Shown here: positions 14,406-27,177 of the stretch, in pieces
Position numbering within the stretch: the first letter of the stretch is position 1
Layout: every line of letters starts with the position of its first letter
Source of the DNA: Candidatus Poribacteria bacterium
Lineage (GTDB): Bacteria > Poribacteria > WGA-4E > WGA-3G
Direction: 5' to 3'
DNA length: 64,000 nt
Assembly: GCA_965215265.1 (NCBI GenBank)
Contig: OZ244048.1
Coordinates: 3,264,001 to 3,328,000 of the forward strand
Made by a program: the position numbers and the translations under genes
Notes under the pieces: generated by a model
Databases searched by the model: none
The model's input: the letters and a program-made list of their open reading frames with translations, nothing else
What the model was told of the DNA's origin: nothing

Positions 14406-14687
14406 ATGCAAGAACAAGAAAATCAAGCCATTCGATTCGTCATTCTTGGAACGCCTTATTCTATCAAACCGAGTGATGATTTACCGCGTGAGGATATCCA
14501 CGAATTGATAGAATACGTTAAGGGCTTAGTTGAATCCTATACTCAAAAAGGTTTTGATGAACAAAAAATTCCGCTGCTCGTTGCTTTCCACGTTGCTGAT
14601 GAGATGCGGCGACTTCAACACTTTTATGAAGCCCCATTGCAGCAATTAGTGGATAAGTTACAGGGCGCAATTGAAGAAAAGGCTTAA
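14406..14687 (+). CDS. zapA: cell division protein ZapA family
   Basis: 93 aa with ILGTPYSIK and LLVAFHVADE followed by a coiled coil; GAGGAGG RBS. Confidence 0.65.
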   Translation: MQEQENQAIRFVILGTPYSIKPSDDLPREDIHELIEYVKGLVESYTQKGFDEQKIPLLVAFHVADEMRRLQHFYEAPLQQLVDKLQGAIEEKA

Positions 14688-14848: not shown

Positions 14849-14878
14849 ATGAAATTGTGTATGAAATTGTGGTATAAT
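14849..14878 (+). promoter_or_regulatory. extended -10 promoter overlapped by a 12-bp tandem repeat
   Basis: atgaaattgtgt/atgaaattgtgg directly before TATAAT (TGnTATAAT at 14870-14878). Confidence 0.55.
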
Positions 14879-14916: not shown

Positions 14917-16509
14917 TTGAAAACAAGGGTTCTCGTGCACCGAGGAATTAGTGTCTTAGCACAGCTAACGATTTTGATGTGTTTCGTTTCTTTTATTGTC
15001 ATACCTGCAACTGCCCAGGTGAGTTACCACGAACAGATTGTCCCTATTCTCAAGCGAAGCTGCCAAGGGTGCCATCACCCTGGCGATGCGAATGGCGATC
15101 TGATTGTCACAACATACGCTGAGCTCAAGCGGGGCGGAATGGCTGGCGAAGCCTTGATACCGGGAAAACCGGATGAAAGTCTAATCATCAAGCTTATTTC
15201 GGGCGATGAGCCCGCGATGCCACAGAACCAAGAACCACTGTCTACTGAAGAAGTGACTCTGTTCCGGCAGTGGATTCTGGAGGGCGCGAACGACGACACT
15301 CCCGCAGAAACTGATGCCCTGGATGAAGGGAACTATCCGGTATACACAGTGCCCCCCGTTATTTCTGCGATGGCGTATTCTCCAGATGGCAGCACGTTGG
15401 CGGTATCTGGGTTCCGCGAAGTTCTATTGTATGATACAGAAACTTTTGAAATCAGCGCACGATTGGTGGGAAAATCGCATCGTATTGAATCGCTTACCTA
15501 TACAACCGATGGAAAAATTTTAGGTGTCGCTGGCGGTTCGCCAGCACAATTCGGCGAAGTGCAATTGTGGGATACTGGAACGAATACGCTCATCAAGGCG
15601 ATGCGTTCGAGCTACGATACCATCTACGGGCTCTCTTTTTCTCCTGATGGGAGTCGAGTTGCATTCGGATGTGCAGACCAAACTGTCCGCGTTCTCTCCG
15701 TTGAAGATGAGACAGAGTTAATTAAATTTGACAATCATAGCGACTGGGTATTCGGGACTATTTTTTCTACCGATGGTTCGCATTTCGTCAGTTGTGGGCG
15801 CGATACAGCTTTAAAGTTGGTTGAAGTAGAAACCGGGTCGTTTGTGGATGATATCAATTCCAGCAATAAAGGGTATGGGGAAATTAATACGCTTGCACGG
15901 CATCCAGCCGCCGACCAGGTGCTAAGCGGAGGAGAGGATAGAATTCCGAGACTCTACAAGATTTTCCGGGAAATCCGGCGGGACGTTGGAAACACAGACT
16001 TCAATCTCATCAAAGCCTACGAAGCGCAATCCGGTTCAATTGAGGCAGTCGCATTCTCGGGAGACGGGAAAAGTTTTGCTGTTGGAAATGCGGCAGGTGA
16101 AGTGCGCGTTTATGATGTAGAAACTGGAACGCGATTATCAACTATGTCCGGGGACACCGTTGGTGTATTTGCAGTAACTTTTCATCCAGATGGTACAAAA
16201 GTCGCCGCCGGTGGTTTCGACGGGAAGATTCGTATCTTTGATGCCGCTACCGGGAAACTTGTCAAAGCCTTTATAGCCGTACCAATCGAAGCCTCAGCAA
16301 CCCAAGACATGGCTTTGACGGTAAGCGGGATGACGTGAGGGGCTTGTGTCGTTAAAGTGCAGGATGCACTCTCAAATCTCCAACACGTTATCAACGTTGA
16401 GGTTTCGCTGCCTGATAAGGCAGTGATTCAGGTTCGGAAGAACGCCATCACCGAAAATGAGCTGGCCAACGTCATTAAAGCAGCTGGGTTTAACGTGCCT
16501 AGGAAGTAG
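14917..16509 (+). CDS. signal peptide + planctomycete cytochrome c + WD40 propeller + C-terminal HMA domain with selenocysteine (UGA at 16336-16338); 530 aa with readthrough
   Basis: CQGCH and WD40 repeats. The frame continues LTVSGMT*GACVVKVQDALSNLQHVINVEVSLPDKAVIQVRKNAITENELANVIKAAGFNVPRK to TAG16509, a complete HMA fold with UGA at the first Cys of GMTCxxC. Confidence 0.88.
16336..16375 (+). promoter_or_regulatory. bacterial SECIS-like hairpin
   Basis: AGTGCA-GGA-TGCACT at 16356-16370, loop ~23 nt after the UGA; lower stem TGAGGG/CTCTCA possible. Confidence 0.7.
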
Positions 16510-16744: not shown

Positions 16745-18205
16745 ATGGCTGGTAAAACTCCAAATATCCTCTGGATTTGTACAGATCAGCAGCGTTACGA
16801 TACGATAGGCGTGCTCGGCAATTCCCACGTCTCAACACCGAATATCGATAGTCTGGTTGAAGAGGGCGTTGCCTTTACTCACGCATACTGCCAAAGTCCA
16901 ATATGTACGCCAAGTCGTGCCAGTTTTCTGACTGGTATGTATCCGAGTGCTGTCCATCTGAACGGCAATGGAAATGATTTCTTTCCGAGTACCTATCCCC
17001 TTGTAACTCGGACACTTGCTGATGCTGGGTACGATTGTGGGTTGATTGGGAAGCTACATCTTGCCAGTGCCTACCGGCGGATTGAGCCGCGAGCGGATGA
17101 CGGTTATCGGTATTGGCAATATAGCCACGCGCCGCGGGATGACTGGGAGGTTGGACATGATTATGCTGATTGGGTCCGTTCCAAAGGTTATATTCTCGGA
17201 GAATTGAATCGGGATGCCGCGGGTGTGCCCGCCGAGCTCCATCAAACAACGTGGTGCGCCGAAAAGACGATCGATTTTATACACGAGGAACGTGACGGAC
17301 CATGGCTAGCAAGTGTAAATATTTATGACCCGCATCCCCCCTTCAACCCCCCGCAAAGCCATAGAGAACGATTCAATCCGATCGAGATGCCTGCCCCGCT
17401 TTTCCAAGAGAGCGATCTGGAACAACAGAGACGATTGCAAAACGTCGATTTCCAATCATCCGGACGAACTCCGGACGAACTTGATATTCGGAATCCAATC
17501 TTACCAAAGCGCCCAGGAAGGCACTCATCCACAGAAATAGACTTAATGAGCGGAAGAGATGCACGAACCCTTAAAGCCGCCTATTATGCTATGATTCAAC
17601 TCCTTGATGAACAGATAGGAAGAATACTTGAAACCCTTAAGGAGACAGGTCAACGCGATAACACGCTTATCATCTTTACCAGCGATCACGGTGAAACCCT
17701 TGGTGACCACGGGCTAATTCAGAAAGGCTGTCGATTTTATGAGGGGCTTGTGCGTGTCCCGCTCATCTTCTCATATCCGGAGCAATTTGTCCAAGGCATG
17801 AAAAGCGATGCACTCGTTGAATTGACTGACAAAACCCCAACGTTATTGGAGTTAGTTGGACTTCCGGTGCCGGAAAATATGCACGGCCGTTCGCTACTCG
17901 CTATCCTACGTGGCGAGTCAAATCCGCACCACCATCGCGATTTTGTGCGATGCGAATACTATGATGCCCTTGATATGCCAAATCATACCTTCGCAACAAT
18001 GTACCGCGATAAGCGTTACAAATTAGTTGTGTATCACGGACACGAAGAAGGCGAGTTGTATGATTTAACCGAAGACCCGTGTGAGTTTGATAACTTATGG
18101 CACAGGGCGGAAAAGCAGAACGTCAAATACCAATTGTTGAAACGTAGTTTCGATGCCGCTATGTTTTGCATGGATAGGGGGCCTCGGCGAGTCGGTCCTA
18201 TGTGA
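16745..18205 (+). CDS. Cys-type sulfatase (S1 family)
   Basis: PNILWICTDQQR, CTPSRASFLTG, GKLH, DPHPP, TSDHGE, ELYDL..DP.E. Confidence 0.95.
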   Translation: MAGKTPNILWICTDQQRYDTIGVLGNSHVSTPNIDSLVEEGVAFTHAYCQSPICTPSRASFLTGMYPSAVHLNGNGNDFFPSTYPLVTRTLADAGYDCGLIGKLHLASAYRRIEPRADDGYRYWQYSHAPRDDWEVGHDYADWVRSKGYILGELNRDAAGVPAELHQTTWCAEKTIDFIHEERDGPWLASVNIYDPHPPFNPPQSHRERFNPIEMPAPLFQESDLEQQRRLQNVDFQSSGRTPDELDIRNPILPKRPGRHSSTEIDLMSGRDARTLKAAYYAMIQLLDEQIGRILETLKETGQRDNTLIIFTSDHGETLGDHGLIQKGCRFYEGLVRVPLIFSYPEQFVQGMKSDALVELTDKTPTLLELVGLPVPENMHGRSLLAILRGESNPHHHRDFVRCEYYDALDMPNHTFATMYRDKRYKLVVYHGHEEGELYDLTEDPCEFDNLWHRAEKQNVKYQLLKRSFDAAMFCMDRGPRRVGPM

Positions 18206-18367
18206 AAAAGTAAAAACATCGGCATCTCCTTTTTTTCTAGGTGAATTTATACATGCAGTCAGCAAAAACGAATACGGACTATCTGTCAACTGATATTGTA
18301 AAAGTCTCCAAGGTTGTGTTGTAGAGAATTGTATCGGCCTACTTAGACCTATTTGATATAAAAGGGT

Positions 18368-19162
18368 ATGATGCTTCAACTAAATACTATCCATTGCGGG
18401 GACACGTTTGAATTACTAAACAGTTTGGAAGATGACTCAATAGATTTAATTGTCTGTGACGGTCCCTATGGTGTAACAGAGAAGGCATGGGATAAGATTC
18501 CGTCGATTCAAGAATTTAACCTAAACCTCATGAAGCGTTTTGCGCCGAAATTAAAACGGGGCGGCTCGTTGTATCTCTTTGGGAAACCTGATTGCATTGA
18601 CTTTATAGATTATCGGCAATTCTTAACGCTGCGTGCAAAGATTGTCTGGTATCAGCCAAGTAGACTCGCGCAAGGACGAATCAATTACACCAATAACTAC
18701 GACATTATCTGCTACTTCATTAAAGGCAAACGCCCAAGGTGCTATAATATTGATGCAATCCGAGTGGATCAACTTGCCGGGTTGACGCACCGGAGACGTT
18801 GCGAGAATGTGCCCTCTGTGGTGAACGGCAAGTTTGGCAAGACGAAATATAATCCGAACGGGAAGAACCCGGGCGATGTGTGGGGTGATATAAAACAGTT
18901 AACCTATAACTCGAAGGAGTTAGTAAGTCGGGAGGCTCTTAATACCATCCAAAAGCCGGAGCGGTTAATTGAACGGATTGTGTTAGCCAGTTCGTCACCG
19001 AGGGATCTGGTCTTGGATGCGTTTGCAGGGGTGGGGACGTGTGCTGTGGTGTGCAAGCGGCATCGGCGGGATTTTATCGGGTTTGAAATGGATCCGGACT
19101 TCGTAAAAATAGGCAATGAACGCCTGTTCTGCGGAGCTAACTCGCCAGAGCTATTTTTCTAA
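18368..19162 (+). CDS. orphan beta-class N6-A/N4-C DNA methyltransferase
   Basis: Motif IV DGPY precedes motif I (LDAFAGVGT); also QKPERL and GDVW. Confidence 0.88.
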   Translation: MMLQLNTIHCGDTFELLNSLEDDSIDLIVCDGPYGVTEKAWDKIPSIQEFNLNLMKRFAPKLKRGGSLYLFGKPDCIDFIDYRQFLTLRAKIVWYQPSRLAQGRINYTNNYDIICYFIKGKRPRCYNIDAIRVDQLAGLTHRRRCENVPSVVNGKFGKTKYNPNGKNPGDVWGDIKQLTYNSKELVSREALNTIQKPERLIERIVLASSSPRDLVLDAFAGVGTCAVVCKRHRRDFIGFEMDPDFVKIGNERLFCGANSPELFF

Positions 19163-19189
19163 ACAGATACAAAATTTGTAGTAAGAATT

Positions 19190-19218
19190 TTGACAAAAAC
19201 ATTAGCGCATGATAATCT
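19190..19218 (+). promoter_or_regulatory. sigma70 promoter facing the repeat-spacer units
   Basis: TTGACA(19190)-17 nt-TAATCT with TGn extension. Confidence 0.55.
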
Positions 19219-19302
19219 CTATGTTATAGAAGAAGAAGGTACAGGACTTGGAGGCTCAAGTTGCTTAACAGTGCATGATAATCTCTATGTTATAGAAGAA
19301 GA
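19207..19302. repeat. repeat(30)-spacer(36)-repeat(30) unit A
   Basis: gcatgataatctctatgttatagaagaaga is identical at 19207-19236 and 19273-19302. Confidence 0.9.
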
Positions 19303-19304
19303 GG

Positions 19305-19402
19305 GTTTTAACCAAACAGTGGTATTTCCACCAACTATTACTGTGATTAATGCCATAGTTTTTTTCAATAAGTTTTAACCAAACAGTGGTATTTCCACCA
19401 AC
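19305..19402. repeat. repeat(31)-spacer(36)-repeat(31) unit B, CRISPR-like repeat
   Basis: gttttaaccaaacagtggtatttccaccaac is identical at 19305-19335 and 19372-19402; GTT..AAC ends and an internal GTGG/CCAC hairpin. No cas genes in the window. Confidence 0.9.
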
Positions 19403-19500
19403 AAAGGCGTTAAATTCCGCACTGATAACGGACAAGTGAAAAATGAAAAACAAATTTCCCCGGCTTGCAGCGGCGGATAAGAGATGTGAAGAGGTAAATT

Positions 19501-22221
19501 ATGAAGCATCACACTGATGAATGCATCGTGCATGAACAGACATTTGAAATAATGAAAGACGTTAAGTTAGCAGTAATTGTGTTTATATTGACTGCAGCGT
19601 TCAATTTAAGTTCCTGGTGTGAAACGTTCACGTACCACTGGGAGATATCTGAGATGCCTTCAGGGGTTGAAACGGTCTCCGTTGTCCAACCGATACAGGT
19701 TGACATACTGGGGAATCTTATACAAGCGAGTTCGGACAGTGCAGCTTTGAAACTCGCAAATTACTACTCTGTCTACCTGTCGCAGCAATGGGAACCTAAT
19801 CAAGCGTACCTATTGCTTCAGATGCTGGAGGCTATACCGCAGCATCGAAATTATCTCGGCAATCCGGAGAGACAAAAAGATCTGAGTTTCTGGTTTATAA
19901 TTGACGGATATGTAGAGAACGATATTCGGTTCAGTGAAATAGGAGGTACGAGGTTTGTTACTATATCGTCTGAGGTGTTTAACTATGCTGATCAGAAGCT
20001 TGCTCGAATCGAAGGTGTGCGTGGGCGCTTCTTCTCCAAGCGACTCCATCACGCCGTCGTTCGGTACGTGACTGACAACGGGGCAGACCGATATGCTATC
20101 GAACGTATCCTACGGGATAGGTATGATGTGCGTGTGAGCGTGCCGGATTATCAGGAACTGACCCGCAACACAACGGGTGAACACGCCGGACGCTTTTCAG
20201 AGTTTAAGAATGAAGAGTTGATCGATATAGTGTCGATGCTGGAGGAATTTCCTTCGGGGATGCTCAAAACCCCGGGGCTGCAGTATCTGGTCCGTCGCCT
20301 GGATGGTACCCCACATCCGTTGCATCCTGAGGCGGGGGCAGTGGCTTGGCCCTCAGCGGGCTACATAGAGTTTATGGAAGGGGCTTTTAAAGGCGGGAGC
20401 CCGGACAGTATTCATCGGTTGATTCTGCATGAGAAAGCACATTTCTTATGGGCACATCTGTTCGATGACCAGCTCAAACAAGATTGGATAGAACTAGGCG
20501 GATGGTTTGAAACTCCAGACGATGGCGATGGGTGGGCTACCACGAAGCAGATTGAATTTGTTTCTGCTTACGCGCACGGGAAAAATCCGAACGAGGATAT
20601 GGCGGAGAGTATCAGTTTTTACATCGTGAATCCGGATAAACTCCGTTCTCGGTCTCCTGCGAAATATGAGTTTATCCAGAATAGAGTGATGCACGGCACG
20701 CGCTACATCTCACGGATACGTGAAGACCTCACTTTCCATGTCTATAACCTCTATCCGGATTATGTCTATCCCGGTAAGATTATACGGGTAGATATCACCG
20801 CGGACGGGGGGCCGGAGGAAGATAAACTGGTAACAGTCGAGATCGAAATTCATGGGGAAAGCGATTTAGATGCGGCACGTTCGCTCTATGTACGGATATT
20901 TAGTGAGGCAGGCACCTTTAACGATATCCGACTATATGCGATAGATGAGAACGGGCGGAACGTCCCAGAGGGGCATGTGTTCAGAGGACAGGAAGTCTTC
21001 TCTCGATATGCTAAAAGTGGGTACTGGGCTCCTGACCAGATTAGCTTTGAAGATGCACACGGTCATGAGAGACATCAGTCGGAGCGTGATTTCGGGTGGA
21101 AACTTTACATAGATAACCCGCTTGAAGATTTAGCCCCGCCTGAATATGTGAAGGACTCGATGGGTCTTGCCTTGTCTCAAGCGGTTACCTCTGATGGCAG
21201 ACCGTATCAGATCGTTACGGCGAGCTGGGAAGTGATAGAGGCCTCCGGTATAGCCAGAGTGAACGCTGCATTGAATGATAATTTTCAGGAGACATATTCG
21301 ACGCTGAACGAATTTGAATATGGCGGCTATGTGCCTGAATTAGGTAAGGTGGTGGTTAAGTTCAATCTACCTGACTATATGCCAAGCGGTATGTACGCGT
21401 TAAACAAAATAGGAATGTTGGATGTTGCGAGAAACTCTTCAAAAGTCTATTTCACTGCTGGTGGCAAGGATGAAGCACCGAAGACGATTCGGGTGGAAAC
21501 GTCACGTCCGGATCTGTCGCCTCCGGTTTTGGATATTAATCGGATAACGGTTCGCGCAGAACCGACTATACCTGAGGCACCTAACGGTGAGACTATCGTC
21601 GATATTAGTTTCTGGATTAAGGACAACATCAGCGGTTATGCCAAAAGTGGGATGTATTTACGGGATCCGCACGGTGTTATGCATCATTTTTGGCATTTGC
21701 CGCCCGGGCGTGGCAGCTTGTATTTCAACGGGGATCCGACAGTTTTTAAGGAATATCACCAACGGATAGTTCTACCCGTAGGTAGCACCCCCGGCACATG
21801 GGGCTTAGCCGAAATGACACTGTTCGATAAAGCGAGTAACATCCTGAAATTGGACTTTACCGAGATTGTTAGATTTGAGGTCGGTGATAATCCGGCCGCT
21901 CCGACATTGCTGCTGACGAGCATACCTGAAAGGACTCAACTCTTGACTAACTATCCGAATCCGTTTAATCCTGAGACATGGATCCCGTATCATTTATCTG
22001 AAGGCACAGATGTCAAAATCAGAATTTGCGATATTACGGGCTCGCTGGTACGCTTAATCGATGTAGGTTTCCAACCTGCGGGGTTCTATGAGTCAAGTAG
22101 CAGAGCAGCAAGGTGGGATGGGCGTAACGGTTTCGGTGAGCAGGCTGCGAACGGCATTTACTTCTATCAGCTAGATGCCGGCAGTCTATCCGATTTACGA
22201 AAAATGGTGATATTGAAATAG
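19501..22221 (+). CDS. secreted HEXXH zinc-metallopeptidase-like protein with a C-terminal FlgD-Ig/T9SS-like sorting domain
   Basis: LILHEKAH..EDMAES; C-terminus NYPNPFNPETWIPY..WDGRN..GIYFYQL..RKMVILK. The true start may be ATG19552. Confidence 0.75.
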   Translation: MKHHTDECIVHEQTFEIMKDVKLAVIVFILTAAFNLSSWCETFTYHWEISEMPSGVETVSVVQPIQVDILGNLIQASSDSAALKLANYYSVYLSQQWEPNQAYLLLQMLEAIPQHRNYLGNPERQKDLSFWFIIDGYVENDIRFSEIGGTRFVTISSEVFNYADQKLARIEGVRGRFFSKRLHHAVVRYVTDNGADRYAIERILRDRYDVRVSVPDYQELTRNTTGEHAGRFSEFKNEELIDIVSMLEEFPSGMLKTPGLQYLVRRLDGTPHPLHPEAGAVAWPSAGYIEFMEGAFKGGSPDSIHRLILHEKAHFLWAHLFDDQLKQDWIELGGWFETPDDGDGWATTKQIEFVSAYAHGKNPNEDMAESISFYIVNPDKLRSRSPAKYEFIQNRVMHGTRYISRIREDLTFHVYNLYPDYVYPGKIIRVDITADGGPEEDKLVTVEIEIHGESDLDAARSLYVRIFSEAGTFNDIRLYAIDENGRNVPEGHVFRGQEVFSRYAKSGYWAPDQISFEDAHGHERHQSERDFGWKLYIDNPLEDLAPPEYVKDSMGLALSQAVTSDGRPYQIVTASWEVIEASGIARVNAALNDNFQETYSTLNEFEYGGYVPELGKVVVKFNLPDYMPSGMYALNKIGMLDVARNSSKVYFTAGGKDEAPKTIRVETSRPDLSPPVLDINRITVRAEPTIPEAPNGETIVDISFWIKDNISGYAKSGMYLRDPHGVMHHFWHLPPGRGSLYFNGDPTVFKEYHQRIVLPVGSTPGTWGLAEMTLFDKASNILKLDFTEIVRFEVGDNPAAPTLLLTSIPERTQLLTNYPNPFNPETWIPYHLSEGTDVKIRICDITGSLVRLIDVGFQPAGFYESSSRAARWDGRNGFGEQAANGIYFYQLDAGSLSDLRKMVILK

Positions 22222-22262
22222 TCAGGTGCGTATTAGTTTGCGTAAACAGATGAGGAGGCAAT

Positions 22263-23084
22263 ATGGGACGGAAAATTGGAATTTATTTGACTTTTATGCT
22301 GCTTTGTGTTATAAATATTAGCAATGCGGCTGTGAAAGTAGGATTTGTTTATCTGGGTGATAATGGACCATTTACCTCGCCTGCATTGGAATTCGCAGAG
22401 AAGGCATTCGAAACCACACAGTTGGCGAAAGGCGACCTGAAGAGCGGGACGTTTAAACAGTACGGTGTGGTGTGGTGGCATGAAGGCGACAGCGACCCGG
22501 GGGCTCTGTCCAATGCAGAAATTCAAGCGTTTTTGGATTATGCCGAGAGCGGTGGTGCGGTGCTATTGACAGGGTGGGCGATTCGCTATGCAACGCCCAT
22601 GGGGCTTGAAAAGGCAGAAGCCCGTGCCTTCGGGCCCGTCGCGGAAGATGGAATCAACGTTGGCATTACCGTGCTAGAGCAGACGCTGGATCTCGGTTTG
22701 GTGGAAGGACTCGAAAATATAGATGGAAAAATCCCACAAGTCGACGATAGAATTCAGGTGAATTCAACAGGTTACCCTAAAAGCGGGGATTATTATGACA
22801 AAATTTGGACGGATTTCATTACGCTCGCGAATGCGTGGGGTCCGCCTGCTAACGATTGGGGAGACCGAATTGCAGCTTTTGGGTATTGGGAAGCTGGCAA
22901 CGGAAAAATCTTCAATATGAATTGGCGGCTCCCAAACTACCACAAAAATAACAAGGATATTGAGCAGCTGGAACGACTGACAGAAAACGTTATCAATTGG
23001 TTGGCGAGTGAATCAGAATTCGCTGAAGTTTCTCCCGCCGATAAGTTATCGATGGTCTGGGGAGAGTTGAAAAACCAGAGGTAA
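22263..23084 (+). CDS. secreted protein with class I GATase/ThuA-like fold and C-terminal 'KLxxxWGxLK' motif
   Basis: Signal peptide; VVWWH, FLDYAESGGAVLLTG; tail VSPADKLSMVWGELK; GAGGAGG RBS. Confidence 0.6.
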   Translation: MGRKIGIYLTFMLLCVINISNAAVKVGFVYLGDNGPFTSPALEFAEKAFETTQLAKGDLKSGTFKQYGVVWWHEGDSDPGALSNAEIQAFLDYAESGGAVLLTGWAIRYATPMGLEKAEARAFGPVAEDGINVGITVLEQTLDLGLVEGLENIDGKIPQVDDRIQVNSTGYPKSGDYYDKIWTDFITLANAWGPPANDWGDRIAAFGYWEAGNGKIFNMNWRLPNYHKNNKDIEQLERLTENVINWLASESEFAEVSPADKLSMVWGELKNQR

Positions 23085-23213
23085 ACACAACTCGGACAAT
23101 CAGCATTTTTGAATTTTACACGGTTCTAACTGAAAATTTCGGTGATACGAATAGAGTCTGTCCCAGGGGGTAGACACCTAACGAAAAGTTTCATATCACG
23201 CTTGGAGGATAAT

Positions 23214-25694
23214 ATGAAACCCAACTTTAACTTTGTCACGGCACTCCTTATGGCAATAACATACACCATCTGTTTTAGCTGTCCGCTAATAGGTTGGTGT
23301 CAAATGGAGAACGCCGGGCACGTCGAAATTCCCAAAGTTACGGCGTTGAAAGTTCAACCCATGTCCCTGACACTGGAACACGCACGCGATGGCCGCCGTG
23401 TTGTTGTATCAGGACGTACACAAGATGGTAGCTGGATCGATGTAACGCGCTGGGCGATCCTTACAGCCACGGATGCTAAAGTCGAAGTGCAACAAGATGG
23501 CTATATCTACCCGAAAGCAACCGGTGCTACTAAAGTTGCTGTCACGCTCAAGGGCCTCACTACAGAGTTACCGGTTGAAGTGAAGAGCATGGATGCCCCT
23601 GCAGTCAGTTTCGTACGAGATGTCATGCCGGTCTTGAGTCACGCTGGTTGTAACAACGGCACTTGCCACGGTGCTGCTAAGGGAAAAAATGGATTCAAGT
23701 TGTCCCTGCGCGGCTATGATCCGGAGTTTGACTATGAGCTCTTAATTGCAGATATCTCTGGACGCCGCTTTAACCGCGCATTTCCTGAACAGAGTTTAAT
23801 GCTGCTCAAGCCGACATCCGAAGTCCCGCATAAAGGTGGCCAGGTGATTGTCCCTGGTTCTAAGGACTACCGGCTTATCCACCAATGGATATCTGAAGGG
23901 GCTGTTTCTGACGTAAAGACCACTCAGCGGGTAGAACGTTTAGAGGTACTGCCCAATTCGTCTGAGTTGGCAATGCCCGGAGCAAAGCAACAGTTAATAG
24001 CGATTGCGCATTATCCTGATGGAACGATGCGTGATGTTACCCGCGAGGCGAAATTTACGAGCAGCGTTAATGAAGTGGCGAAAGTAAATGACGACGGAGT
24101 CGTCACGGCTGAACGTCGCGGCGAAACCGCGATACTGACGCGTTACGAAGGTGCTTATAGTACAAATGGCATCATCGTGATGGGCGATCGAAGCGGCTAC
24201 AAGTGGGTTGAAACCGCGGAATATAACTATATTGATACACACGTCCACAACAAACTCAAGCGGATGAAAATTCTGACATCTGAGCTTTGTACGGATGAAG
24301 AATTTGTGCGTCGAATCTATCTTGATTTAACCGGCATCCCGCCGACACCAGACCAGGTACGTAGTTTCCTTAATGACGGTACCCCGTCCAAGGCGAAGCG
24401 CGAACAGTTAATTGATGTCTTGGTTGAAACGCCAGAGTTTGTCGACCATTGGGCACATAAATGGGCAGATTTGTTGCAGTCTAACCGTAAGTTTCTAGGA
24501 GAACGCGGGGTGTGGCTTTTCCAGCAATGGATTCATGAGTCGATTGCTGAGAATCGTCCGTACGATCAGTTTGTCCGCGACCTGATTACTGCAACAGGGA
24601 GTAGTTACACCAACCCGGCTGCTAATTATTTCCGCGTTTCCCGTGAGTATACTGCTGCTGTGGAAAATACGACGCAACTCTTCTTGGGTGTTCGTTTTTC
24701 ATGTAATAAGTGCCACGATCATCCGTTTGAAAAGTGGACGCAAAACCAGTATTATGAGTTCGGTGCGTTCTTCGCGGATGTCAAGGTAAAGCCGGGGCAG
24801 CTGCCCGGTGATGAGGTGGTTTATGCGAGTTTCGCCGAAACGCCTGTGAAACACCCGCGAACCCTTGCCGTGGTTGAACCAACAGTACCTTTTGGCAAAG
24901 TAAATTCAGAGACTGAGGATAAACGTGCAATGCTCGCAGAGTGGCTCACAGATGCCGACAATCCTATGTTCGCACGGGCAGGTGTGAATCGCCTCTGGAG
25001 TTATTTCATGGGACGCGGTATTATTGAGCCCGTTGATGATATTCGAACGAGTAACCCGCCGACCAATCCTGAGCTTCTTGATGCGCTGACACAAGATTTT
25101 GTGACGAGTGGTTTCGATCTCAAGCACATGATGAAAACCATTACACGTTCCAGAACCTATCAGCAGAGCATCAAAACCAACAAGTGGAACAAGGCAGACA
25201 CCATTAATTTTTCTCATGCTGTTGCGAGACGTTTGACAGCAGAACAGTTGCTGGATTCCATCGGTGTTGCAACTGGGAGCCGCCCGAAATTTGAGTCGAT
25301 GCCCAAAAGCTTCAGAGCCGTTCAATTGCCGGATAGTAAGGTCAAAGATGATGGGTTTTTGAAGTTGTTCGGTCGTCCGGAACGTGAGACTTCGTGTGAA
25401 TGCGAACGGACTACAGAAGTCAGCCTTGCACACGCGATGAACCTTATTAACGGGCCGACGGTTGCGGATGCGCTGATAGATAAAAACGGCCGGATTGCAC
25501 AACTCCTTAAAAAGAATGTGGATAACCGAACTATAGTTGAGGAGTTGTACCTTGCGACGTTTTCGCGGTTGCCATTGGAGCATGAGTACAAAGTAGCAGT
25601 TGAACATCTCGCAAACGCCGAATCAAAGGAAGCAGGCGCGCAAGATTTGTTGTGGGCGTTGATTAACAGCCCCGCATTTTTATTTAATCGGTAA
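23214..25694 (+). CDS. DUF1549/DUF1553 (planctomycete cytochrome PSCyt2/PSD1) protein with Ig-like domains
   Basis: GCNNGTCHG, EFVRRIYLDLTG, CNKCHDHPFEKW, NRLW..GRGIIEPVDD, FGRPER..CECER, WALINSPAFLFNR. GGAGG RBS before ATG23214. Confidence 0.92.
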   Translation: MKPNFNFVTALLMAITYTICFSCPLIGWCQMENAGHVEIPKVTALKVQPMSLTLEHARDGRRVVVSGRTQDGSWIDVTRWAILTATDAKVEVQQDGYIYPKATGATKVAVTLKGLTTELPVEVKSMDAPAVSFVRDVMPVLSHAGCNNGTCHGAAKGKNGFKLSLRGYDPEFDYELLIADISGRRFNRAFPEQSLMLLKPTSEVPHKGGQVIVPGSKDYRLIHQWISEGAVSDVKTTQRVERLEVLPNSSELAMPGAKQQLIAIAHYPDGTMRDVTREAKFTSSVNEVAKVNDDGVVTAERRGETAILTRYEGAYSTNGIIVMGDRSGYKWVETAEYNYIDTHVHNKLKRMKILTSELCTDEEFVRRIYLDLTGIPPTPDQVRSFLNDGTPSKAKREQLIDVLVETPEFVDHWAHKWADLLQSNRKFLGERGVWLFQQWIHESIAENRPYDQFVRDLITATGSSYTNPAANYFRVSREYTAAVENTTQLFLGVRFSCNKCHDHPFEKWTQNQYYEFGAFFADVKVKPGQLPGDEVVYASFAETPVKHPRTLAVVEPTVPFGKVNSETEDKRAMLAEWLTDADNPMFARAGVNRLWSYFMGRGIIEPVDDIRTSNPPTNPELLDALTQDFVTSGFDLKHMMKTITRSRTYQQSIKTNKWNKADTINFSHAVARRLTAEQLLDSIGVATGSRPKFESMPKSFRAVQLPDSKVKDDGFLKLFGRPERETSCECERTTEVSLAHAMNLINGPTVADALIDKNGRIAQLLKKNVDNRTIVEELYLATFSRLPLEHEYKVAVEHLANAESKEAGAQDLLWALINSPAFLFNR

Positions 25695-25731
25695 TAGGTT
25701 TGTAGTATAGAAAAAATGGAGGAAACAACTG

Positions 25732-27177
25732 ATGTTATCGTTACCTCAAATGCCTGGACGCTTGTGTGACGGGTTTTCTCGTCGTGAATTTATCCGCGTC
25801 GGCGGTGCAGCAATGCTGGGCATCAGTCTACCACAAGTTTTGGCGCTCCAAGCCGAAGCGAATACGACAGTCGATCCCGCGAAACCTCTAAACGGATGGG
25901 GAAAAGCAAATGCTGTTATTCTCCTCTTTTTGCAAGGCGGCCCGAGCCATCTGGATATCTGGGACCCGAAGCCGGAAGCGCCATCTAATATCCGGGGGGA
26001 ATTCAACCCGATTCCGACGAACGTCCCGGGGATACAGTTGTCTGAAACCATGCCCCGTTTGGCACAGCAGATGGATAAAGCGTGCCTCATCCGATCGGTA
26101 AGTTATACCCCGGCAGGTCTTTTCAACCATACGGCGGCGATGTATCAGATGGTGACGGGCGAAACGCCGGATAAGGTTGCTCCATCTGGGCAGCTTGACC
26201 CGCCGTCCCCTGCAGATCATCCCAACGCCGCGGCACACATCGCAAACTTCCGTCCGCCCGATGAACCGATGCTGGCGGCTGTCCAACTCCCACGCCCGAT
26301 GCAGGAAAGTAACATCATCGGTAAGGGCGGGAATGCTGGCTTCCTCGGTAGGGCCTATGATCCGTATTTCCTATTCCAGGATCCAAATCAAGAGATTAAT
26401 CTTGACGATTTGACGTTGAGGCCGGAAGTGCCGCCTGTGCGTCTGAAACGACGGAAAAACCTACTAGAAACGATTAACGCCGGTATGCCGGAAATTGATA
26501 AGGTTGCTGACTCTTACGCGCTCAATGAATATTATGAGAAGGCGTATAACCTCATCTTGTCCCAACGTGCGCGTAATGCATTTGATTTGTCTCAAGAATC
26601 CGATGAAATGCGTGACCGTTACGGCCGGCATACCTTCGGGCAAAGTGCGCTGCTTGCACGCCGTCTAGTTGAAGCTGGTACGCGTTTTGTGCAGGTGAAC
26701 TGGCCCTCTGTTGCTAACGGTGATCCGAACACGACAGCCTGGGATACGCACGCCACCAATTTCGGACCGCTCAAAAACTTGCACTGTCCGAAATTAGATA
26801 GTGCGGTTTCTTCACTCTTGGAAGACTTGGATGGGCGTGGCATGTTAGATGATACCCTGGTGTTGGCTATCGGTGAATTTGGCCGTTCTCCACGGATGGG
26901 CATTAGTACCTCCGGAAATAGCAATGCCCCCGATGGGCGTGATCACTGGCCGTATTGCTATACTGGCTTAATTGCGGGTGCCGGTGTACAGGGTGGGCAG
27001 GTTTACGGCAAGTCGGATGCCACTGGCTCAACACCACTTGAGAACCCGGTGCATCCACGCGATATTCTTGCGACAGTCTACCATACGCTCGGAATCGATC
27101 CGCATACTATCGTGTTAAATCACTTAGAACAACCTCGCGAATTGGTGAAAGGCGAACCGATTGCTGGGATTTTCTAA
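25732..27177 (+). CDS. DUF1501 domain protein (Tat signal)
   Basis: SRREFIRVG, GGPSHLDIWDPKP, ARRLVEAG, WDTH, GEFGRSP, GRDHWP. Confidence 0.93.
   Translation: MLSLPQMPGRLCDGFSRREFIRVGGAAMLGISLPQVLALQAEANTTVDPAKPLNGWGKANAVILLFLQGGPSHLDIWDPKPEAPSNIRGEFNPIPTNVPGIQLSETMPRLAQQMDKACLIRSVSYTPAGLFNHTAAMYQMVTGETPDKVAPSGQLDPPSPADHPNAAAHIANFRPPDEPMLAAVQLPRPMQESNIIGKGGNAGFLGRAYDPYFLFQDPNQEINLDDLTLRPEVPPVRLKRRKNLLETINAGMPEIDKVADSYALNEYYEKAYNLILSQRARNAFDLSQESDEMRDRYGRHTFGQSALLARRLVEAGTRFVQVNWPSVANGDPNTTAWDTHATNFGPLKNLHCPKLDSAVSSLLEDLDGRGMLDDTLVLAIGEFGRSPRMGISTSGNSNAPDGRDHWPYCYTGLIAGAGVQGGQVYGKSDATGSTPLENPVHPRDILATVYHTLGIDPHTIVLNHLEQPRELVKGEPIAGIF

Follow-up and report, generated by a model that had tools for sequence, protein, structure and literature searches.

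The stretch of DNA analysed here (the window; 64,000 nucleotides, positions 3,264,001 to 3,328,000 of contig OZ244048.1 in assembly GCA_965215265.1) comes from a Candidatus Poribacteria bacterium that belongs to a sponge-symbiont lineage and whose genome is a single contig of 4.83 Mb. Between aroE and an ORF (open reading frame) for a ZapA-like protein on the upstream side and a sulfatase gene on the downstream side, the window carries a gene that joins a cytochrome c domain, a WD40 beta-propeller and a heavy-metal-associated (HMA) domain in one polypeptide, the last of these domains being interrupted by an in-frame UGA that, on comparative sequence evidence, almost certainly encodes selenocysteine (Sec). 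The ORF opens on the forward strand at TTG 14917, with the sequence GGGGGAG just 5′ of this start, and is closed by TGA 16336-16338 after 473 residues ending in LTVSGMT. When this TGA is read through, 56 further codons remain open until TAG 16507-16509, for a total of 530 residues. The features of the locus are collected in Table 1.

Table 1. Features of the selenoprotein locus and of its ancestral partner genes (positions are those of the window).
Feature	Positions	Strand	Basis and remarks
Promoter-like site (ATGAAA, 18 nucleotides, TG-TATAAT)	14849..14878	+	Upstream of the gene; consensus match, 10/12 positions
Predicted complete selenoprotein gene	14917..16509	+	TTG start; putative Sec-UGA as codon 474; true stop TAG 16507-16509; 530 residues
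Putative signal-peptide-like N-terminus, residues 1-34, ending IPATA/QV	14917..15018	+	By-eye reading of the translation; AlphaFold2 helix 2-25
PSCyt1 monoheme cytochrome c domain	15061..15222	+	PF07635; CQGCH (C49, C52, H53) and M101 invariant
Seven-bladed WD40 beta-propeller, residues ~150-460	15364..16296	+	Pfam, AlphaFold2, Foldseek
C-terminal HMA domain, residues ~461-530, loop G-M-T-U474-G-A-C477	16297..16506	+	PF00403, AlphaFold2, nearest solved relatives
UGA predicted to encode Sec, codon 474	16336..16338	+	Column conservation across orthologs, Cys interchange, independent contigs
Candidate core hairpin of a Sec insertion sequence, AGUGCA-GGA-UGCACU	16356..16370	+	Conservation, synonymous suppression; a weaker lower helix may extend across 16339-16381
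DUF1549/DUF1553 (PSCyt2-PSD1) gene and DUF1501 gene	23142..27177	+	Ancestral direct neighbours of the selenoprotein gene

In a Pfam scan of the 530-residue form, PSCyt1 (PF07635) was matched over residues 49-102 with 37.5 bits (cut-off 22), WD40 propeller models over residues ~150-460, and HMA (PF00403) over residues 467-525 with 39.1 bits against a cut-off of 24.8, the alignment reaching from position 2 to position 61 of the 62-position profile. A linker of some 10 residues tethers this last domain to the propeller. The UGA falls within this domain, with strand 1 and G-M-T before it and G-A-C and the remainder after it, at the position that the first cysteine of GMTCxxC occupies in HMA domains, the local motif thus being GMT-U-GAC. 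A comparison of 43 sequences revealed as invariant not only the heme-binding residues C49, C52 and H53, but also M101, the probable sixth heme ligand, and many charged and aromatic residues of propeller blades 3-5. The first-pass annotation of this DNA had placed the end of the annotated ORF, the continuation of the frame as an HMA domain, the UGA at the first cysteine and a hairpin about 23 nucleotides further on, and its coordinates agree with ours throughout. It had also proposed an exported fusion of heme c, beta-propeller and a UxxC metal-binding domain; all three domains were found by Pfam, and export is predicted from a signal peptide recognized by eye, so that this description of the product is well supported by what can be read from the translation.

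The AlphaFold2 model, computed from the 43-sequence alignment, has a mean predicted local distance difference test score (pLDDT) of 85.2 and a predicted TM-score (pTM) of 0.76. It contains a seven-bladed propeller, while the cytochrome part is less confident and is modelled without heme. The tail follows a beta-alpha-beta-beta-alpha-beta pattern with a pLDDT of about 90 (strands 462-468, 491-497 and 501-507, helices 475-486 and 513-522, and a short final strand), and residue 474 begins helix 1. The top Foldseek matches of the whole model were generic seven-bladed propellers of the WD40 type, with target TM values reaching 0.92. By sequence, the solved structures closest to the tail are metal-binding domains from ATP7B and CopA, followed by MerP and CopZ.

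Orthologs, defined by E <= 1e-90 when 176 genomes of the phylum were searched in all six frames, are present in 133 genomes, and the state of their tails was read from the translated loci. In the gene's own family (f1), 110 of the 112 genomes, including the source genome, have the ortholog; each carries exactly one TGA, and the match extends to about residue 527. The two f1 genomes that gave no match are 95% and 84% complete. All seven genomes of family f4 have the ortholog, four of them with a Sec-HMA tail behind a longer linker and three with no HMA domain. The 11 orthologs among the 29 genomes of family f3 comprise nine Cys-HMA forms (eight in genus g11, one in g17), one Sec form (G081) and one HMA-less form, and the five among the eight genomes of f8, which belongs to a different order, all lack the HMA domain. 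The length of the linker before the HMA domain varies among orthologs. TGA occupies the GM[TM]-U-xxC column at 41 orthologous loci, at three further loci and at 80 of 80 loci of a named collection, these sets sharing genomes. At ten loci the codon aligned with codon 474 is TGT or TGC; nine genomes are named for them (G044, G083, G086, G088, G095, G096, G098, G099 and G100), the tenth locus being L062 or L061, from G099 or G098. The ortholog of G081 (genus g15; L058, G081:C1:395950-398688) contains two Sec-HMA domains in tandem, with one TGA in each. The exchange of Cys and UGA codons that the first-pass annotation had put forward as a check is thus found among relatives, and the TGA, far from being private to this assembly, is fixed across f1. 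Positions 16336-16338 are moreover covered by contigs of four other studies, with no difference listed. Note also that the relative in genome G010 (L009/L052, G010:C53:3599-8148) has a second, partial gene copy, which corresponds to residues 339-528, keeps the TGA and lies 3′ of a 75-residue sulfatase fragment; this copy reflects either a local duplication or an assembly artefact.

Selection was measured as pairwise ratios of non-synonymous to synonymous substitution (dN/dS; Nei-Gojobori, NG86) over the 41 Sec forms, with 295 to 626 of the 820 pairs per region having a usable dS. The ratio is 0.08 for the cytochrome part, 0.05 for the WD40 propeller, 0.14 for codons 475-530 and 0.13 for codons 487-530, at a saturated dS of ~1.3-1.5. 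Purifying selection downstream of the UGA had been suggested as a further check, and the value of ~0.14 obtained for this region is in line with it; judged from these substitution patterns, the tail past the UGA is translated and constrained.

The UGA is followed by a hairpin, which we regard as the candidate core of a Sec insertion sequence (SECIS), formed by AGTGCA at 16356-16361, the loop GGA at 16362-16364 and TGCACT at 16365-16370, with 23 nucleotides between the UGA and the loop. It overlaps codons 480-485 (K-V-Q-D-A-L). In an alignment of 42 sequences, pairing holds in 99.6% of the cells of the upper stem. The loop reads GGN in 41 rows; in the remaining one, L042, the closing pair is lost, which leaves AGGAC as the loop. 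Of the 80 named loci, 55 have GGA as the loop, 11 have GGG and nine have GGC, and the five others are single variants, mostly of the wobble or closing-pair type; GG opens the loop in 80/80. The Sec forms also share their codons here, Val481 being GTG in 41/41, Gln482 CAG in 41/41 and Ala484 GCA in 40/41. Normalised codon entropy averages 0.75 over the gene and drops to 0.09 at codons 480-484, the lowest value among 291 five-codon windows, and the six lowest of these windows all begin at codons 478-483. The strongest synonymous-site suppression of the gene therefore sits at the hairpin. The ten Cys forms, which are close kin of one another, provide a natural control for the hairpin: their loop lacks GG (GAA/AAC-type), Ala is GCG in 10/10 and Val is GTA in two. 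Their hairpin looks like the "remnant SECIS" that one report describes for Cys forms derived from Sec forms (PMC1794560). In addition, contigs of foreign organisms in metagenome run X6 match the window over 16330-16370 alone (41 nucleotides) and are unlike it in their flanks, which indicates that nucleotide conservation from the UGA through the hairpin is far above that of the rest of the gene.

The bacterial SECIS model, as set out in a 2026 review, allows a loop of 3-9 nucleotides, a stem of 4-16 base pairs, G in the first two loop positions, a spacing of 16-37 nucleotides and a minimum free energy of -7.5 kcal/mol or lower (PMC13188914). The 3-nucleotide loop, the stem of 6-7 base pairs, the GG and the 23-nucleotide spacing of our hairpin all lie within the limits given there; the energy of the core hairpin lies outside them. 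An Rfam scan returned no SECIS-type match, the hits being chance-level miRNA and snoRNA models (E = 2 to 3.6).

The first-pass annotation had made its reading depend on Sec machinery in the genome, and selA, selB, selC and selD were all found. Profile searches of the genome identified SelA (515.7 bits), SelD (359.6 bits) and, in a 656-residue frame, the SelB winged-helix domain (57.1 bits), and a tRNA-Sec gene (selC, anticodon tca, 2081521-2081614) lies directly 3′ of selB; the selB/tRNA-Sec stretch corresponds to C1:2081335-2081614. There is one in-frame TGA within selD itself. SelD (G000:C1:4044330) reads as a selenoprotein too, with the motif KCAG-U-ASK; after its UGA a hairpin with a G-rich loop can be drawn by eye, and the computed fold of this stretch did not show the hairpin. 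TGA otherwise serves as an ordinary stop, as in the adjacent sulfatase ORF, the product of which aligns over its full length with orthologs, and in several orthologs of the selenoprotein gene, where TGA is the true stop 3′ of the HMA domain.

The genome has five HMA matches, three of them with a TGA. Outside the window, two adjacent genes that are unrelated to the cytochrome-WD40 gene encode small lipoprotein-like Sec-HMA proteins (G000:C1:2909770-2910201, 143 residues, and 2910264-2910617, 117 residues; L053:4771-5618), followed 3′ by a third HMA-like ORF that lacks cysteine (L053:6001-6483). Both small proteins have a C-terminal HMA domain with VTGMT-U-GAC, and both genes have the hairpin GGUGCA-GGC-UGCAC at the same offset as in the cytochrome-WD40 gene. 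They score below every NCBIfam HMA cut-off, including that of NF041115 (about 50 bits versus 95), and there are no metal-resistance genes among their neighbours.

We consider it very likely, taken as a whole, that the gene encodes a 530-residue exported selenoprotein with a tethered Sec-HMA arm that is predicted to bind metal. SelB and Sec-tRNA(Sec) would read UGA 16336 as Sec, the signal being the short SECIS hairpin of codons 480-485, and the predicted product would consist of a signal peptide, a monoheme cytochrome c (CQGCH), a seven-bladed WD40 propeller, a linker and an HMA domain with the loop U474-x-x-C477. The arm may work as tethered HMA domains do in mercuric reductase and in Cu(I) P-type ATPases: its selenolate-thiolate pair would take up a soft metal ion (Cu(I)/Hg(II) class), which the arm would then offer to partners or to other parts of the protein. 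The remainder of the protein may act as a periplasmic electron carrier and scaffold, allied with DUF1549/DUF1553 and DUF1501 proteins. If selenium runs short, translation would stop at the UGA and yield a 473-residue HMA-less form resembling the naturally HMA-less orthologs, which fits the earlier suggestion of two isoforms only as a prediction.

Several observations weigh against this reading. Covariation was detected neither in the hairpin nor in the lower helix (shuffles match the observed score in 324/500), and compensatory changes occur at one hairpin pair only; the missing covariation signal is explained by the hairpin being almost invariant, and the evidence at the RNA level therefore rests on conservation and not on compensatory change. 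The core hairpin, at -6.2 kcal/mol, is weaker than the -7.5 kcal/mol that PMC13188914 gives as the limit, and -9.6 kcal/mol is reached only with the lower helix, which is paired in 78% of cells; the fold of a 71-nucleotide segment is no better than those of shuffled sequences (z = -0.65). The existence of orthologs that have no HMA domain (in three genomes of f4, five of f8 and one of f3) implies that the core function does not require the tail, and SelA is also encoded in the Cys-form genomes G044 and G098, so that Sec is not obligatory for the protein. Lastly, the Foldseek search of the whole model returned no enzyme-like fold, generic WD40 scaffolds alone being matched. As to the Cys forms, the idea that the change from Sec to Cys tracks loss of the Sec trait was rejected, given the SelA of G044 and G098; G083 (90% complete) alone had no strong match.

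The main rival concerns the function of the tail. The Sec-HMA domain could be a redox module, U474 and C477 cycling between a selenenylsulfide and the selenol/thiol pair and exchanging electrons with the heme or a partner, in the manner of the UxxC motifs of thiol-oxidoreductase selenoproteins. The heme c on the same chain speaks for this possibility, which we nevertheless hold to be improbable: fold and motif are those of metal-binding HMA domains and not thioredoxin-like, the closest relatives in NCBIfam and the PDB are all metal chaperones or domains of transporters, and the tandem duplication in G081 parallels the arrays of metal-binding domains known, for example, from Cu-ATPases. It is very unlikely that the UGA is instead a true stop, followed by an untranslated HMA-like relic or by the small ORF GTG 16357-16509 (50 residues). 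That ORF does exist, and gene callers terminate all Sec-form orthologs that we found at the UGA; however, strand 1 and GMT of the HMA domain precede the UGA, so that neither piece alone would make a domain, dN/dS downstream is 0.14 (at saturated dS), the frame is open to its conserved end in >110 genomes, and Cys codons stand in place of the TGA at ten loci. Least credible of all is a UGA read outside the Sec pathway, by a code reassigned to Trp or Gly or by near-cognate readthrough, since TGA terminates the adjacent sulfatase and ends several orthologs after the HMA domain, relatives have Cys, the counterpart of Sec, at the aligned position, and the full Sec machinery is present together with a SECIS-type hairpin. 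Nothing specific speaks for this reading, as a frame that is open under an altered code does not by itself argue for such a code.

That Sec-containing HMA proteins exist, as the first-pass annotation stated, is borne out by entries that differ in architecture: the selenoproteome of the Global Ocean Sampling expedition lists a UxxC "cation-transporting ATPase" and a Sec "MerP" (PMC2398784), the table in the 2026 review includes a UxxU metal-binding protein (NF041115) and a Sec ATPase (PMC13188914), and NF045683 describes a MerT/CopZ fusion selenoprotein. In the cation-transporting ATPase, too, Sec takes the place of the first cysteine of the HMA loop (UxxC), and the domain is tethered to a larger protein. 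It differs from our selenoprotein, for which neither PF00122 nor PF00702 occurs among the Pfam matches listed (best 25 of 50) and residues 1-460 are cytochrome and WD40; the HMA domain is N-terminal on a cytoplasm-facing pump in the Sec P1B ATPase, but C-terminal on a predicted exported heme c/WD40 protein here. The UxxU_metal_bind family NF041115 is also an HMA-fold selenoprotein family, which matches residues 461-526 weakly (37.8 bits versus 95) and has UxxU where the present protein has UxxC. The MerT/CopZ fusion NF045683 shares the HMA fold and gives a weak match to the tail only, within the same residues (15.6 bits versus 375), there being no MerT part here. MerP, which is periplasmic, CopZ and NmerA share both the fold and the GMTCxxC loop, but the selenoprotein has Sec for Cys and is fused to cytochrome c and WD40 domains, and it stays below the equivalog cut-offs of MerP (31 versus 92.55) and CopZ (38.7 versus 91). 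NmerA is a tethered HMA domain that passes metal to the redox core of mercuric reductase.

The PSCyt1-WD40 proteins of Poribacteria and Planctomycetes share the orthologous core, at 51-85% identity, and the DUF1549/DUF1553 partner. The Cys-HMA forms among them have the same three-domain architecture; the known proteins are Cys forms or HMA-less, and none was found named as a selenoprotein. Public Sec-form orthologs end at the UGA, with 449-490 residues, and are called "hypothetical" or "WD40 repeat protein", while the public Cys forms are full-length with PF00403 (19 clusters) and have no meaningful name. The earlier statement that no such fusion was known is consistent with our searches: we found no printed description of a cytochrome c/WD40/HMA selenoprotein in the literature, including the available part of the 2026 review table, and the protein matches none of the Sec-HMA models named above. 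The words "WD40", "HMA" and "Planctomyc" are absent from the accessible text of that review (PMC13188914), and supplement S9 of PMC4807772 holds no cytochrome, WD40 or HMA candidate. The combination of heme c, WD40 and Sec-HMA is a new domain architecture of a known Sec-HMA kind. The assignment to a planctomycete family in the first-pass annotation has to be corrected, as 80 of the 80 best loci are labelled Candidatus or uncultured Poribacteria or "uncultured bacterium", and "planctomycete" occurs only in the names of Pfam domains.

With regard to the neighbourhood, the promoter-like site of Table 1 should be seen against the seven promoter-type sites that consensus matching gave in the region overall, where 5.7 were expected. 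The ZapA-like ORF (window positions 14406-14687, 93 residues; PF05164, 25.6 bits) lies between aroE and the selenoprotein gene and is syntenic in the same-genus genome only. No mer or cop genes occur near the selenoprotein gene among its neighbours in the window. The stretch 16745-23084, which separates this gene from the DUF1549/DUF1553 gene (23142-25694), holds genes for a sulfatase with a CTPSR motif and no signal peptide by eye, a DNA methylase of the N6/N4 type, a 906-residue protein and a 273-residue protein. The 906-residue protein has a Por_Secre_tail-like end; its gene was found in 0/80 related loci and widens the gap in the source genome. Among the 80 f1 loci, the sulfatase gene is found downstream in 71, the methylase gene in 50, the 273-residue gene in 71, DUF1549/DUF1553, a few kb away, in 71, and DUF1501 in 22, the last count being limited by the length of the flanks. 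At 14 loci of families f3, f4 and f8, the DUF1549/DUF1553 ortholog lies directly 3′ of the cytochrome-WD40 gene, which identifies DUF1549/DUF1553 and DUF1501 as ancestral partners that insertions have separated from it in f1. The presence of these genes at 23-30 kb was thus correctly noted by the earlier annotation, but they do more than merely accompany the gene, their orthologs directly adjoining it in the other families. The sulfatase was considered as a functional partner and rejected; having no signal peptide by eye, being absent in G001 and not being a neighbour in other families, it is treated as an insertion.

A broader proposal combines these observations: the Sec-HMA domain would be the substrate arm of a periplasmic module of PSCyt1-WD40, DUF1549/DUF1553 and DUF1501 proteins in bacteria of the Planctomycetes-Verrucomicrobia-Chlamydiae (PVC) group, the module would carry out redox chemistry, within the tissue of the sponge, on a soft metal or metalloid (species of Cu, Hg, Ag, As or Se), and Sec-HMA and SECIS would have spread together as a mobile coding unit, a notion prompted by the same hairpin in the fused tail, the tandem copy and the free lipoproteins. 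We put it forward as a tentative idea that, in its entirety, is rather unlikely to hold; if the substrate-arm reading were true, it would give a very large uncharacterised gene family its first functional lead.

For annotation, recognition of the Sec codon means that a protein which at least 115 species-level sponge-symbiont genomes conserve regains 57 residues and an entire domain, and the nearly invariant UGA-N17-AGUGCA-GGN-UGCACU can serve as a marker and nucleotide probe for the family in metagenomes. An exported heme c and propeller architecture joins the short list of Sec-HMA proteins, and a domain that would bind soft metals becomes linked to the uncharacterised DUF1549/DUF1553/DUF1501 module. 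The Sec, Cys, HMA-less and double-Sec forms of the protein, all present among these orthologs, constitute a natural comparison for what selenium adds to a metal-binding loop.

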